Below are positions 30,099 through 35,274 of a stretch of 64,000 nucleotides of DNA, in pieces. The notes below the pieces were generated by a model, which searched no databases, was not told the DNA's origin, and saw only the letters and a program-made list of their open reading frames with translations. Within the stretch, counting starts at the first letter, position 1. The number at the start of each line of letters is the position of its first letter. The DNA comes from a virus. The DNA is taken from the IMG/VR virus record IMGVR_UViG_3300021962_000036, positions 1 to 64,000 of that record, one strand, 5' to 3'. Position numbers and translations under genes: made by a program.

Positions 30099-30707
30099 AT
30101 GGCAATAAAACATATTCTGGCATTAGATATTCCAGACACAGCATGTGATACTATTCTAAAAATTTGGGATAGTTCTAGTTATGCTGAGACGTTACCTGTA
30201 GACTGTCCTAGGTTAGACATATTCTTTCCTGGATTTGCAGAACCCTTATATATTACAGAACCAAAGATTGCTCCAGGTTTTGCCCTTAATTTGAATGCTA
30301 AAGACTTTAGTTTACAACATCCTCAAGCAGAGCATTTGATTTCTTTGCCTGATGGTTTATATACAATCAAATACAGTGTTTCTCCTAATGATAAAGTATT
30401 TGTTGAATATTATCATTTGAGAACAACAACAATAATGAATGCGTATTACAAGGAACTTTGTAAAGTACAATTAGCACCTTGTGAACCTTCACCAGAGCAA
30501 CATCAAAAACTACATGATTTACGTTATATAAAAATGTACATTGATGCTGCAAAAGCTAAGACAGAATATTGTCATTCACCTAAGCAAGGTGTTGAAATGT
30601 TAGCATATGCTGACAAATTGCTTAAAAAATATATGACTGGCTGTTGCGTTAGTTGCAGTGGATCACACGGAGGTTATACTCATGGATCACATGGTCATCA
30701 TCACTAA
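30099..30707 (+). CDS. structural protein with Cys/His-rich tail
   Basis: LPDGLYTIKYSVSPN; C-terminus GCCVSCSGSHGGYTHGSHGHHH. Confidence 0.75.
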   Translation: MAIKHILALDIPDTACDTILKIWDSSSYAETLPVDCPRLDIFFPGFAEPLYITEPKIAPGFALNLNAKDFSLQHPQAEHLISLPDGLYTIKYSVSPNDKVFVEYYHLRTTTIMNAYYKELCKVQLAPCEPSPEQHQKLHDLRYIKMYIDAAKAKTEYCHSPKQGVEMLAYADKLLKKYMTGCCVSCSGSHGGYTHGSHGHHH

Positions 30708-30924: not shown

Positions 30925-31149
30925 ATGGATCCAATAGAACGCATAAGTGAAGTATTTGCTGATTCAGTATTTGTTTCCTACAAGAAAACACGTTATGGTT
31001 TAAAATCTTGTAAGATGACAATTGACGCAGAATACGCAAATGATTTGAGAGAACTTTATTTAAGAACTCTTGAAATGAACACTTGTGGGTTAACTTTTGG
31101 TGGTGGTTGTTCAAAAATTAGTATTGAAGAAAAAATCAAGACAATATAA
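30925..31149 (+). CDS. hypothetical protein
   Basis: 74 aa, coupled to its neighbours. Confidence 0.65.
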   Translation: MDPIERISEVFADSVFVSYKKTRYGLKSCKMTIDAEYANDLRELYLRTLEMNTCGLTFGGGCSKISIEEKIKTI

Positions 31150-32711
31150 TGAAACCTATAAACAGCAACTTAAGATTAAAACCTGAAGATGGATGCACAA
31201 AAGTATCATCTTCATGCGTTATCTGGCAAGGTCCAGATATTCCTTGTATTGAATTATGCAAAGGAGACTCAATTACAGATGTTGTTTATGAGTTAGCAAT
31301 GAAGTTGTGTGAAATAACTTCTGGAGTTATTGATCTTAGTACACTAGATTTTAAATGCTTAGTGCCAACAGGTATTCCTGAACCAACTACAATTATTCAA
31401 GCATTACAGTTGCTTATTGATAAGCAATGTTTTTTTGAAGAAAATTGTTGTGATGATGGACCTGGTGGTAGTACAGTACCTATTCCTATTTCATTACCTC
31501 CATGTTTATATTTTACAGAAGATGGAGATGAAATAACATCTTTACTTCCAACTGATTACAGTTCTTATTTAGCAAGTAAAATTTGTGAAATTATAGATGA
31601 TATTACAAGTATCAATTCTACCATTGCAACATTGCAAAATAGAGTCACTACATTAGAAGCAAGTTCTGGTGGAGGTGGTGGTACTGGAGCAACAATATCT
31701 GTTGTTGCACAGTGTGCTAGTAATCCTATACCTGGAACAGTTGTTCCTATTGGCCAAGCATTTTCTGCATTTGAAAGTAAGTTTTGCCAATTAACAACAA
31801 TTCTTGGAAGCAATGCTGCGTTATCAACTGCGATTGGTACAGAATGTGCAGGATTAGACTCAGCTCCACAACTAGTCAATGGTGATAATACAATGTCAGA
31901 AATTGCAGGTTGGGTTGCTTCTCCATCAACTTTGTCAGAAACCATAGTAAACATGTGGTTGACAATATGTGATATGAGATCTGCAATTGTAAATAGTTTG
32001 AACACTACAATACCATGTATTCCAATTCCTGTATCTAATATTCAAATAACAGATGTAACAAGCACAGGTTCTAAAATAACTTGGTCTGCTCCAAATAATG
32101 GAACTGTGTCAGAATCACCTTTACAATATTTACTAAAAGTATATGAGTGGAATGGTTCATCAACAGTAGGTTCACCTATTGTTAGTGTTATCAAACCTTT
32201 TGGAACAAATTTTCATGACATAACACTTGTTCCTGATCCAGCAAAAGATTATCAAATACAAATTACAGCTGAATATTCTTGTGATCTGTCTACTGTTGCA
32301 ACTACCATTGGTAAAATTGCTTTGACAACTGTCCTATATTGTGTAGCTGTAACAGATGTTGCATATGATGAAATCAATCAATTATGTGATGGTAATTCAT
32401 ATGTTACAAAAAGAAGAAAAACAACCCTTACACTAAAAGATATAGTTTCAGGTAATCCTGTAGCAAATACTTTAGCACCATTTACTGCTGTAATTAATTA
32501 TGACATAGATGGAGATTGTGCTTTAATTACTTCAGAATCAATTACAAAAACATTTGCAACAGGTGTTTCTAGTGTAGATCATATTTATGAAATGGAAAAA
32601 TATGTTCAATGTGCATCAGATCCATGTGCTCCTAAGATTAAATCCTACAATTGTATTGGAAGTATCTCAAGCACAAGAGCTGTAGCATGTAGTGGTGAGG
32701 TAACTTGTTAA
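31149..32711 (+). CDS. Cys-rich fibre/decoration protein with coiled coil and FN3-like domain
   Basis: N-terminal CVIWQGPDIPC module; coiled coil ITSINSTIATLQNRVTTLE; FN3-like PVSNIQITDVTSTGSKITWSAP. Confidence 0.75.
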   Translation: MKPINSNLRLKPEDGCTKVSSSCVIWQGPDIPCIELCKGDSITDVVYELAMKLCEITSGVIDLSTLDFKCLVPTGIPEPTTIIQALQLLIDKQCFFEENCCDDGPGGSTVPIPISLPPCLYFTEDGDEITSLLPTDYSSYLASKICEIIDDITSINSTIATLQNRVTTLEASSGGGGGTGATISVVAQCASNPIPGTVVPIGQAFSAFESKFCQLTTILGSNAALSTAIGTECAGLDSAPQLVNGDNTMSEIAGWVASPSTLSETIVNMWLTICDMRSAIVNSLNTTIPCIPIPVSNIQITDVTSTGSKITWSAPNNGTVSESPLQYLLKVYEWNGSSTVGSPIVSVIKPFGTNFHDITLVPDPAKDYQIQITAEYSCDLSTVATTIGKIALTTVLYCVAVTDVAYDEINQLCDGNSYVTKRRKTTLTLKDIVSGNPVANTLAPFTAVINYDIDGDCALITSESITKTFATGVSSVDHIYEMEKYVQCASDPCAPKIKSYNCIGSISSTRAVACSGEVTC

Positions 32712-32740: not shown

Positions 32741-34342
32741 ATGTATCCTAATCAATATTGTCATCCTTGCACAGAGCCAACACCATGTGTTCCAGCTCCA
32801 CCACCACCAGATTGTATAGGTGAACCATGTGAAGAAATTGTTCTAGACACATGTGTAAGATATACAGGACCTGCAATTCCATGTCTTGGAATTACTACAG
32901 GTGCAGATCTTAGTCAAGTACTACAAATTATTGCAGCAAGACTTTGTGATTGTTGTGATGGAACACCTCCAGTTGTAAATTGCGTAGTTTCTGCATGGTC
33001 AGAATGGTCAGAATGTATAGATGGTGTTCAGACAAGAACTAGAACAGTAATTCAAGCTCCACAAAATGGCGGTACTGCTTGTCCTCCATTAATAGAAACA
33101 AGATCATGTTGTGAGCCTGTTGACTGTGTAGTATCTGCATGGAGTGATTGGTCAATTTGTGATGGGGATGTTAGAACAAGAACAAGAACTGTTGTTACGC
33201 CAGCATCATGTGGTGGAGTAGCTTGTCCTGTTTTAATTGAAACAGAATCTTGTAACTTACCATTGCCATGTCAACCAATAACAAATATTCTTGGTAGATC
33301 ATTAGATTGTGAAACAATTGAAGTATCATTTTCAGATGGAGCTACAGGTCCAGCAACAAGTTTAGTTGCAGAATTAGTTAGTACAAGTGCACCTTCTGTT
33401 GTTTTACAGTCATTTACTTTCACAACAACTGGCGCTGCTGCATCATATTCTCATACATTTACAGCTGTTGCTCCTGGTTCATACCTTATAAAAGTTTATA
33501 AAACTAGTGCAGCAGGAACTTGTGATGTTGTTACAACTTCTGCTGTAACAGTTGAAGTTTGCGCAACATGTGTGCCATTAACAGACATAGATGTTTTATC
33601 TGACAATTGTGAAACTTTACAAATTTCATTAACTGATGATGGAAACGCTACTGTTTTGTATGCTGAATTATTTAACAATAATGCACCAACTATAGTTGTA
33701 TCTACCAAAACATGGACTCCATTAGGATCAGCTACTGTTTATAGTCATACTTTCACAGGATTAACTCCAGGAAATTATTTTGTAAAAATTTACAAAGATG
33801 CTGGTACTGTAAAATGTGATACAGTTGTAACAAGTGCTGTTTTAGTACAAGGATGTCCTGTAGATTGTGTTGTTTCAGATTGGTCTGCATGGTCTGAATG
33901 TATTGAAGGTGAACAAACTAGAACAAGAACAATAGTTACACCTGCATCAAATGGTGGAACTCCATGTCCTGTATTGACAGAAACACAACCTTGTGAAATA
34001 CCATGTGTCCCTTTAACAAACTTTACAGCAATATCTGATAATTGTGAAACGTTAACCGTTTCAGCAGTAGATAATGGAGAAGCAACAGATTTACATGTAA
34101 CATTGTATAATGCATCTAACCCAACAGTGCCTTTATTTACTCATGATTGGATTCCTACTGGAAATCCTGGATCATACACACATACATTTACAGGTCTTTC
34201 AGGAGGAACTTATATTGCAATAATTTACAAATTGTCAGATCGTTCAACTTGTGATCCAATATCATCAGCAAATGTTGTTGTTGAAACATGTAAATCAGCA
34301 TGTCCTGCACCAACAGGAGTATCAGCTACAGTAACAGCTTAA
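32741..34342 (+). CDS. adhesin-like protein with three thrombospondin type-1 repeats and three Ig/SprB-like repeats
   Basis: 3x CVVSxWSxWSxC...TRTRT...GGxxCPxLxETxxC; 3x CET...YxHTFTxxxxGxYxxxxYK...CD. Confidence 0.85.
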   Translation: MYPNQYCHPCTEPTPCVPAPPPPDCIGEPCEEIVLDTCVRYTGPAIPCLGITTGADLSQVLQIIAARLCDCCDGTPPVVNCVVSAWSEWSECIDGVQTRTRTVIQAPQNGGTACPPLIETRSCCEPVDCVVSAWSDWSICDGDVRTRTRTVVTPASCGGVACPVLIETESCNLPLPCQPITNILGRSLDCETIEVSFSDGATGPATSLVAELVSTSAPSVVLQSFTFTTTGAAASYSHTFTAVAPGSYLIKVYKTSAAGTCDVVTTSAVTVEVCATCVPLTDIDVLSDNCETLQISLTDDGNATVLYAELFNNNAPTIVVSTKTWTPLGSATVYSHTFTGLTPGNYFVKIYKDAGTVKCDTVVTSAVLVQGCPVDCVVSDWSAWSECIEGEQTRTRTIVTPASNGGTPCPVLTETQPCEIPCVPLTNFTAISDNCETLTVSAVDNGEATDLHVTLYNASNPTVPLFTHDWIPTGNPGSYTHTFTGLSGGTYIAIIYKLSDRSTCDPISSANVVVETCKSACPAPTGVSATVTA

Positions 34343-34366
34343 CAAAAAAATAAAAAAAATAAACAA

Positions 34367-35149
34367 ATGGCAACATTAACTATAAATTTTACACCAGTAT
34401 CAGGAATATCAAGTTATGAAATTTGTTATAGACCTGTAGGTGCAACAACTCCTTTTATTTGTATAGAAGATTCCGCATCACCTGTTGTTATAACTTCAGG
34501 GATTGAATGTGGTGTTGCATATGATGTGACAGTAAGAACAAACTGCCCTCCAGGAGAATATTTATCAGACCAAAGTACATCTGCTGTTGCAGTAGCTACA
34601 GCACTAGAATGTCCTCCTGAAATAGTATGTGTATCTTACACAATATCAACATCATCAGCTCAAGGACAAACTTCAGCTTATATTGATTGCATGGATCAAA
34701 TTCAACAAGTAACTGTAGGAGGTGTTAGTGGATATGACGCAACTACATTCTGTGCAAAAGAAGGTAGCGTTGTAATAGCTGGTGAATGTAATCTAACAAT
34801 TAATGGCCCATGTGGTGACCCAGTAGGTCCAATTACAGTAACTGGTGCGTATGGTTCAATGGAACCATGTATTGGCGGTACAATTGATGATTATATGAGT
34901 GCTAGTGTTAGTTTAGATGCTCCAGTTTCTGTAGACACAAATTTTAACGTAAATGTTTTATGGACTCAGTTAAATGGTGGCAGTTGTGCCAGTCCTAATA
35001 CTCAATCATTTACAGTTCTTGTACTAGCTGGGCAAGTATCTGGTCAATTAAATGCATGTAATCAAGGAGCTTATTTTGCACAAGGAGCATCTATTTGTGC
35101 AGCTCAAGTAATGGGTCATGACAACACAGTTGACATAATTAATTACTAA
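34367..35149 (+). CDS. Cys-rich beta protein starting with an FN3 domain that lacks its first strand
   Basis: ATLTINFTPVSGISSYEICYRPVG...YDVTVRTNC. Confidence 0.75.
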   Translation: MATLTINFTPVSGISSYEICYRPVGATTPFICIEDSASPVVITSGIECGVAYDVTVRTNCPPGEYLSDQSTSAVAVATALECPPEIVCVSYTISTSSAQGQTSAYIDCMDQIQQVTVGGVSGYDATTFCAKEGSVVIAGECNLTINGPCGDPVGPITVTGAYGSMEPCIGGTIDDYMSASVSLDAPVSVDTNFNVNVLWTQLNGGSCASPNTQSFTVLVLAGQVSGQLNACNQGAYFAQGASICAAQVMGHDNTVDIINY

Positions 35150-35203: not shown

Positions 35204-35235
35204 GTGCCCCTGGCGAAAGCTGGGGGTATCTTTTT
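35204..35235 (+). terminator. intrinsic terminator
   Basis: GTGCCCCTGGC-GAAA-GCTGGGGGTAT followed by CTTTTT. Confidence 0.8.
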
Positions 35236-35274
35236 AAAAACCAATTGTTTATAAGAAATTATAAATTAATTTCC

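Follow-up and report, generated by a model that had tools for sequence, protein, structure and literature searches.

A fibronectin type III domain divided between two adjacent genes of a distant crAss-like phage: a likely strand-complementation joint between fibre proteins

In chaperone-usher pili, each incomplete immunoglobulin (Ig)-like sandwich receives its missing strand from the neighbouring subunit, so that a chain of beads is formed; the missing strand is the C-terminal strand G, an N-terminal extension acts as the donor, and the process requires an usher as well as a periplasmic chaperone. Ig-like domains are also added to phage structural proteins by programmed frameshifting, with a fibronectin type III (FN3) or Ig-like domain located at the end of a gene and the next frame continuing the domain string. 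Here, we analyse an FN3 domain which is divided between two adjacent genes on a stretch of 64,000 nucleotides (nt) of viral DNA (IMG/VR record IMGVR_UViG_3300021962_000036, positions 1 to 64,000). This stretch is referred to as the window and represents the first 64 kb of a 119,946-bp genome. The C-terminal tail of the first protein probably completes the N-terminal domain of the second, which would connect two parts of a virion fibre.

Completion of the fold of one protein by another is known from three further cases. In the baseplate tripod of the Lactococcus phage Tuc2009, for which the structure has been solved, the C-terminal residues 296-321 of BppU complete a beta-sheet in domain 2 of BppA, and the composite resembles a titin Ig-like domain (PMC4742702). 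In the type V pili of Bacteroidia (FimA/Mfa1), a protease removes the N-terminal anchor strand of a pilin, and the C-terminal donor strand of the preceding pilin takes the vacant place; donor strands are present in stalk and adaptor subunits but not in tip subunits (PMC13655056). The nozzle of the Pseudomonas podophage A1002 is split, with two proteins rebuilding one canonical protein and one of them filling the missing strands of the other; its fibre dimers dock by beta-sheet augmentation (PMC13730344). The principle is thus known, and a plug which consists of a single FN3 strand A and which fits into an N-terminal socket differs from all three cases.

The upstream gene of the pair (32741-34342, + strand) codes for a protein of 533 amino acids (aa). 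Its C-terminal end is CKSACPAPTGVSATVTA, followed by a TAA stop codon (34340-34342). The downstream gene (34367-35149, + strand) codes for a 260-aa protein with the N-terminus MATLTINFTPVSGISSYEICYRPVG, its first residues being Met-Ala-Thr-Leu-Thr-Ile-Asn-Phe. We refer to these as the donor (or stem) and the acceptor (or tip) gene. Both open reading frames (ORFs) are in one frame, and the A-rich 24-nt spacer between them (34343-34366) translates as eight sense codons, QKNKKNKQ. A preceding analysis of the letters and ORF translations (the sequence-only reading) had described exactly this layout, which we confirm. It had interpreted the arrangement either as strand complementation between two proteins, as in pilins, or as stop read-through resulting in a longer fused fibre, and had added that the spacer also looks like a normal A-rich leader. 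The latter remark fits the gene leaders of this phage, which are A-rich. We treat the spacer, which together with the TAA covers 34340-34366 (+ strand), as the leader of the acceptor gene.

The final 13 residues of the stem protein, beginning at Cys521 (residues 521-533; 34301-34339, + strand), make up the donor tail, the proposed strand A of the FN3 domain. The preceding part consists of a near-invariant N-terminal region of about 80 aa, three thrombospondin type 1 (TSP1) repeats (TSP1_spondin, PF19028, E-value 2.8e-36; TSP_1, PF00090, E-value 2.5e-13), and three Ig-like sandwiches. TSP1 repeats, a domain best known from animals, occur with variable copy number in all relatives of the stem protein. 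The N-terminus of the acceptor ORF coincides with the start of FN3 strand B. Its head (residues 1-82; 34367-34612, + strand) represents an FN3 domain from strand B onwards, is devoid of strand A, and includes Tyr52 and Cys60 (codon 34544-34546). The remaining tip part (residues 88-260; 34628-35149, + strand) is predicted to fold into two more beta-sandwich domains and has no donor tail at its end.

Relatives of the gene pair were collected from IMG/VR and from metagenome contigs. Once duplicates had been set aside (L001 and L011 do not differ over 2 kb, and L004, L006, and L008 represent the contigs that also gave L001 and L003), the collection comprised 18 acceptor genes at 11 distinct loci. 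The acceptor gene is located directly behind a donor-tailed ORF in 16 of these 18 cases, so that the split point to which the sequence-only reading had drawn attention is conserved among homologues. The tails share the motif Cys-x-x-Pro-Thr-x-[Leu/Val/Ile]-x-[Ala/Gly]-x-[Val/Ile/Pro/Met], which is followed by 1-12 more residues. Counted from the Cys, tail length varies between 12 and 23 residues at the 16 junctions and is never below 12. In the alignment of stem proteins, C521 and T525 do not vary and P522 and P524 hardly vary, although the preceding domain differs among the relatives. The 18 heads have only two invariant columns, which are Tyr52 and Cys60. The fact that the heads from L013-L016 are merely 33-35% identical to that from the window indicates that the arrangement is old.

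The adjacency of donor and acceptor exceeds chance. An acceptor is encoded within 60 nt downstream of all 13 donor-tailed ORFs but of only one among 356 other ORFs (Fisher p 4.6e-23). This comparison covers 369 ORFs of at least 50 aa, taken from both strands of 13 sources; three of the 16 junctions are not included, their donor ORFs being truncated at the end of the locus. Across all 119,946 bp of the genome, the donor motif and the acceptor motif occur once each, and the two are adjacent.

Membership of the heads in the FN3 family is evident from profile searches. A profile built from the 18 heads matched 84 solved FN3 sequences at an E-value of 0.01 or better (fibronectin, titin, tenascin, monobodies; best 3.6e-12), and seven of the 18 heads matched PF00041 at E-values up to 1 (best 1e-6). 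Strands A to G are not encoded on one polypeptide, however: the head starts at position 15 of PF00041, and a stop codon is located between the two halves. The head profile begins 12-17 residues into single-domain FN3 chains, with its positions 4-72 aligning to residues 13-84 of 1fna_A and to residues 18-89 of 1ttf_A; residues 18-89 were also obtained for 4lpw_A. The N-terminal residues of the solved FN3 domains which are skipped by the profile correspond to strand A. When the head profile was run against a library of 1.84 billion proteins, 25,061 proteins were found at an E-value of 0.001 or better. The top ones are giants with 8-59 repeats, and the top 150 are all giant multi-FN3 proteins, which confirms the fold family and is uninformative on how universal the split may be.

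The position of the cut could be specified by comparison with P0050, a 1060-aa cellular protein with PF00041 and a type IX secretion system (T9SS) sorting domain, which shows 33-34% sequence identity starting from phage residue 5 or 6. In its intact FN3 domain, 21 residues lead from the leading Cys to the Trp of strand B. The 13 residues of the phage tail and eight acceptor residues likewise add up to 21, so that the cut is located in the A-B turn and not a single residue has been lost. The claim of the sequence-only reading that one FN3 domain is split between two genes is thus supported by this match in spacing, by the head profile, and by the heads which match PF00041.

When the tip protein was modelled alone with AlphaFold2 (AF2; 34-row alignment), three strand-rich domains were obtained at a mean predicted local distance difference test (pLDDT) score of 82.4. 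Strands in the head were called at residues 4-6, 17-23, 31-35, 40-42, and 52-58, with a pLDDT of 77-86 for residues 1-60. Residues 61-80, where strand G is expected, have a pLDDT of 54-59, and no strand was called there. The tip part from residue 88 to 260 was modelled at a pLDDT of 79-96. A Foldseek comparison of the 260-aa model with the PDB gave no match at an E-value of 0.001 or better; the best ones are fibronectin fragments and FN3 strings (E-value 2e-3, template modelling score 0.25), and the model thus provides no clue to the ligand of the tip. For the stem protein alone (10-row alignment), the mean pLDDT is 70.6, with strand-rich domains at residues 181-271, 281-369, and 426-499, the last of which reaches 85-92. 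The first 80 residues or so have a pLDDT of 32-46. The tail was modelled as disordered, with a pLDDT below 50 at residues 520-527 and 531-533 and no secondary structure.

A complex of stem residues 419-533 and tip residues 1-95 was modelled with an interaction prediction score from aligned errors (ipSAE) of 0.79 (0.80, 0.79, and 0.79 in the individual runs), compared to 0.00 for the best of three controls. Of 80 solved complexes, 58 reach the ipSAE mark, as do 2 of 110 mismatched pairs; these counts are only rough since custom alignments were used. The three runs share at least 98% of their contacts, and the partner has a pLDDT of at least 88, with a value of 89 for the acceptor head. On the stem side, the interface consists of residues 518-533 only, while the tip contributes residues 2-11, 50-60, and 63-80, so that the region which is weak in the lone model joins the interface. 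The closest pairs in the model are 531:4, 530:5, 529:6, 528:7, and 527:8, in addition to 521:60. Because the first five pairs keep a constant index sum, tail residues 526-531 are predicted to run antiparallel to acceptor residues 8-3, that is, to strand B. Tail residues 529 and 531 also contact residues 52, 54, 75, and 77, and the conserved alternate positions of the motif [LVI]-x-[AG]-x-[VI] are thus expected to face the core. Modelling of the stem C-terminus with the tip head, a check which had been proposed with the sequence-only reading, hence places the tail as strand A.

Taken together, we consider it likely that the two fibre proteins are joined by inter-protein strand complementation, with the tail acting as plug and the head as socket. 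The 533-aa stem and the 260-aa tip would be consecutive links of one fibre on a crAss-like virion, which might be a head or a tail fibre, and would share a single FN3 domain with the A-B turn as its dividing point. Prior to contact with the tip, the 13 C-terminal stem residues would be free and unstructured. On contact, they would take the place of strand A in the first tip domain and pair in antiparallel orientation with its strand B (residues 3-8), with the inward residues Val527, Ala529, and Val531 packing against strands F and G to close the hydrophobic core. The shaft would be made up of the TSP1 and Ig-like beads, and the two further sandwiches of the tip would face outward. The first 80 residues or so of the stem family (32741-32980 in the window) are almost invariant in an alignment of 10 relatives and probably anchor the fibre on the virion, by analogy with crAss001, where the first 26-58 residues of the head and tail fibres hold them in place (PMC10172136).

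The joint may in addition be locked covalently. Cys521 contacts Cys60 in the complex, at an expected error of 0.6 Å in the model. All 16 tails have the donor Cys, and all 18 heads have a Cys following strand F. The latter is the sole Cys within the first 75 residues of eight of the 18 heads and thus has no partner in its own domain; a ninth head (L015:769) has one other Cys, at residue 75. The intact FN3 domains of P0050 have a Cys at both of the equivalent places. With Cys521 positioned next to the invariant Cys60, an interchain disulfide may form once the virion is outside the cell; we consider the chances for and against this bond to be about evenly balanced. Disulfides are reported to stabilise the tail barrel and the fibre hubs in the crAss001 virion (PMC10172136).

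The gene order in the relatives is informative with respect to chain formation. In the window, L003, and L007, a 520-aa protein is followed by a tailed stem (444-533 aa) and a tip (256-260 aa). L001 and L012 code for a 520-aa protein (cut by the locus end in L012), a 487-aa protein with tail, a 177-aa protein with socket and tail, and a protein of 256-258 aa. The order in L010 is 548 aa with tail, 187 aa with socket and tail, and 263 aa. In L009, a 555-aa protein with tail and a 177-aa protein with socket and tail are followed by proteins of 178 aa and 255 aa, both with socket only. Finally, L015 codes for 186 aa with socket and tail, 303 aa with socket, 408 aa with tail, and 231 aa with socket; by eye, the N-terminus of the 408-aa protein resembles that of the 520-aa proteins. 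Cassettes of 177-187 aa which carry both socket and plug are thus positioned between stem and tip in L001, L012, L010, and L009, and the final genes are devoid of a plug. This pattern suggests that a chain can be lengthened by proteins which have both ends and is terminated by proteins without a tail: a cassette with socket and plug would be insertable, and a socket without plug would be the end.

Among 49 homologues of the 260-aa protein, 39 begin with the socket, which is combined with four or more unrelated C-terminal parts. The cassettes start with a socket from a second subfamily, for which sequence identity is only 21-28%. Given this modularity of plug and socket, tips would be exchangeable by recombination at the joint. 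In L009 (1888-3768), the 178-aa and 255-aa socket genes are arranged in tandem behind one plug-bearing cassette, which amounts to two plugs for three sockets; the tandem genes may be alternative tips that compete for one plug. A specificity code between tails and heads was considered for phages with two joints, where the two tails differ at a few outward positions (for example Thr vs. Ser at the eighth tail residue), and was rejected, as the pattern fails in L007 and L013-L016.

Some relatives have stem or cassette and tip fused into one protein. P0056 (636 aa, on a 121-kb contig) consists of the stem N-terminus and a TSP1/Ig string, to which a region matching tip residues 88-258 is directly attached (50% sequence identity, E-value 2e-49), and is devoid of a counterpart to tip residues 1-87. 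In P0024 (346 aa), the body of a cassette is followed by the equivalent of tip residues 86-260 (79% sequence identity); P0031-33 (346-349 aa) resemble P0024 by eye. The two FN3 halves are thus absent together from P0056 and P0024. According to the classical fusion argument, the separate proteins therefore belong to one assembly. As the fused relatives do without the connector, the split FN3 domain is needed only where the chain is broken.

Other explanations have to be weighed against a joint of this type. If the ribosome passed from one ORF to the other by read-through or frameshifting, an 802-aa fibre protein would result, having an intact FN3 domain with a nine-residue insert in the A-B loop. 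This corresponds to the second of the two interpretations from the sequence-only reading, and the shared frame and the absence of a further stop from the spacer in the window would allow for it. The relatives do not share these properties. Their 16 spacers, that of the window included, have lengths of 24, 32, 25, 15, 25, 31, 38, 31, 28, 32, 23, 32, 11, 54, 5, and 39 nt. Only four of them are a multiple of three, which is near chance and leaves 12 that are not, and three of these four contain extra in-frame stops. At 13 of the 16 junctions, the spacer has a stop codon in the acceptor frame, so that the two ORFs could not be connected there by read-through or by one frameshift. The 54-nt spacer from L015 (715-768) has a G+C-rich inverted repeat which, by eye, resembles a hairpin. 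TAA has to be considered an ordinary stop codon as it terminates 41 of the 44 listed genes. The stretch was found in 20 public runs, and the contigs from four of these were compared: DNA runs X4, X5, and X12, and RNA library X14, with parts of the stretch being without cover in X12 and X14. Each contig that crosses the junction retains the TAA, in all four runs, so that the stop is not a sequencing error, which the sequence-only reading had named as a potential pitfall. A 34-kb contig from X5 has one additional A after 34351 and only two other differences within 1 kb; its spacer has 25 nt, and the ORFs are out of frame. The shared frame in the window is thus an accident. A conserved open path between the frames, as is expected for programmed read-through or frameshifting, does not exist among the relatives. 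Conserved stop read-through was rejected on these grounds, and we consider a translational fusion to be highly improbable. Of the two initial interpretations, strand complementation is the one that is supported, namely by conservation, fusions, and models.

The split could also be a remnant of cassette shuffling, with a gene boundary that fell into recombination-prone FN3 DNA, halves that no longer interact, and a tip that is held otherwise or is unattached. Recombination at this site is real, considering that the socket is found in front of different C-terminal parts and that cassettes come and go. Residues 1-60 of the lone head are modelled with fair confidence (see above), and two acceptors do not have an adjacent donor: L009:3001 follows another acceptor gene, and L015:154 is preceded by 153 nt of apparently non-coding DNA. 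However, a useless tail should decay, and all 16 tails have kept at least 12 residues, the Cys, Pro-Thr, and the alternating inward positions, despite heads of only 33-35% sequence identity and a non-homologous preceding domain. Also, the fused relatives have dropped both FN3 halves together, and the contacts in the complex model are made through the tail only. We thus regard a shuffling remnant as unlikely. Still less likely, in our assessment, is that plug and socket are real and have partners other than their neighbours, be it another virion protein or several tips that compete for one plug. Such partners would account for the two donors and three acceptors of L009 and for the lack of an adjacent donor for L015:154, but the genome analysed here has exactly one donor and one acceptor according to the motifs used, and these are neighbours.

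Apart from the two acceptors without an adjacent donor, several points weigh against strand complementation. Pfam scans of the 260-aa protein and of the read-through product gave no match to fn3 (PF00041), including at the junction, which equally argues against a translational fusion. The acceptor head from the window (first 82 aa), when compared to PF00041, reached an E-value of 0.12, which fails the cut-off, with residues 3-60 aligning to profile positions 15-70 of 84. An ancestral state with a whole FN3 domain is not documented among the relatives; a search for longer homologues which fuse stem and tip around an intact FN3 domain gave only three matches, all to 1060-aa cellular proteins, which is weak evidence. 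FN3 is a very familiar fold, and the complex score may reflect likeness to a whole FN3 domain rather than affinity; this score refers to one stem-tip pair and says nothing of specificity. Also, the head from the window has four cysteines (residues 20, 32, 48, and 60), which could pair mutually.

With strand complementation as the preferred reading, the joint can be compared to the systems introduced above. As for BppU and BppA from Tuc2009, a C-terminal extension of one phage protein would complete the sandwich of another, which here is predicted in the complex model and involves a tail that is conserved among relatives. In Tuc2009, a hairpin with two strands and 25 residues serves as the donor and the C-terminal domain of the partner as the socket; here, the plug would be a single strand A of 12-13 residues and the socket an N-terminal FN3 domain. 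Unlike in Tuc2009, cassettes with plug and socket can form chains, many relatives have the cut exactly at a gene boundary, and the two sides of the cut contribute one Cys each to a conserved pair. Sequence kinship to BppU was considered and rejected, as BppU-like_C (PF21470) was found once among the 18 heads with an E-value of 0.15, which is noise.

The logic of stem, cassette, and tip is the same as in type V pili, as is the replacement of an N-terminal strand by a C-terminal donor, a polarity which is seen here in the model only. The host phylum is also the same, as judged from the terminase relatives described below. Type V pilins are two-domain transthyretin-like lipoproteins from which a protease removes the anchor strand. 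In contrast, the fold is FN3 here, and there is nothing to cleave: the proteins begin directly at strand B, with no search for signals or a lipobox having been made. As the strand is absent by gene structure, neither a cleavage step nor a protease or chaperone would be needed. Pilin families were not found in Pfam scans of the proteins from the pair and of the 18 heads.

The comparison to pilins which had been drawn in the sequence-only reading thus holds for the principle but not for the details as known from chaperone-usher pili. Here, the missing strand is A rather than G, and the donor is a C-terminal tail rather than an N-terminal segment. No chaperone or usher genes were seen among the ORFs beside the pair, which are phage structural genes and an exonuclease gene, although no search aimed at such families was made. 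As the defining features of chaperone-usher and type V pilins are not found, the joint is positioned outside both families. The A1002 nozzle is built from beta-propeller and platform domains and has neither a portable connector nor a repeated cassette system, unlike the proteins described here. While frames are joined by the ribosome in the case of frameshifted Ig-like domains, there is neither a conserved frame relation nor an open path between the genes of this pair. No description of an FN3 domain split between phage fibre genes was found in the open-access literature, supplements excluded.

As to transcription, a terminator-like hairpin with a T run (35204-35239, + strand; 11 pairs, 6 of them G-C) is located 55 nt 3' of the tip gene, and a consensus scan found no terminator-like site between the stem and tip genes. 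Two such sites were found in 3 kb vs. 1.5 expected. This pattern, a consensus match only, hints at one transcription unit which ends after the tip gene. A scan for sigma-70-type promoters found 16 vs. 12.6 expected, and this promoter type may not suit the host. Contigs from RNA library X14 span the junction (34242-34393). We do not take them as evidence for co-transcription because such libraries can include DNA and the contigs show no transcript ends.

The genome segment upstream of the pair codes for the large terminase (phrog_6681, E-value 1.5e-64), the portal (phrog_6547, E-value 5.3e-85), and the major head protein (phrog_11589, E-value 5e-34). Downstream of the pair are an exonuclease gene and several consecutive genes for very large virion proteins. 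The interval 39462-63999 is occupied by six very large ORFs in a row, which range from 874 to more than 1744 aa and the first of which matches the virion structural families phrog_37948 (E-value 3.2e-66) and phrog_15100. The closest named relatives of the terminase, with only 24-26% sequence identity, are from uncultured crAss-like phages and from phages of Bacteroides, Flavobacterium, and Cellulophaga. They point to a distant crAss-like phage, the host of which presumably belongs to the Bacteroidota; the A-rich gene leaders, which are devoid of a Shine-Dalgarno motif, are consistent with such a host. Neither the read-through protein (tblastn) nor 10 kb of DNA (megablast) had a match among the INPHARED phages, and no PHROGs family was matched by the 520-, 533-, and 260-aa proteins.

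The 520-aa protein encoded upstream of the stem gene (31149-32711) has an intact internal FN3 domain (PF00041, E-value 0.0015, residues 294-377). Its Cys-rich N-terminal pattern Cys...Trp-Gln-Gly-Pro-Asp-Ile-Pro-Cys recurs at the start of the donor-tailed 408-aa protein from L015. A 202-aa ORF (30099-30707), which does not match a PHROG family, has a Gly/Ser/His-rich C-terminal tail with three His at the very end.

In the crAss001 virion atlas, the distal fibres are flexible and unmodelled, and the words fibronectin and Ig-like are absent from it (PMC10172136). A conserved split-domain joint is a testable answer to the question of how the distal fibre parts of crAss-like phages connect. It predicts, from gene ends alone, which genes form one fibre and in which order, and it explains how one tip may replace another while the stem stays as it is. 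Should the joint be locked by the Cys pair, it would be a small natural tag with its socket, which could serve in protein assembly. More tentatively, as something possible rather than probable, we propose that crAss-like phages have a portable, gene-encoded connector, with a tag of 12-13 residues as plug and an FN3 domain without strand A as socket, which is locked by a disulfide and strings together stems, cassettes, and swappable tips. If this is true, such a portable plug-and-socket would correspond, in nature, to engineered peptide-tag/catcher pairs and would provide these phages with a route to host-range change.

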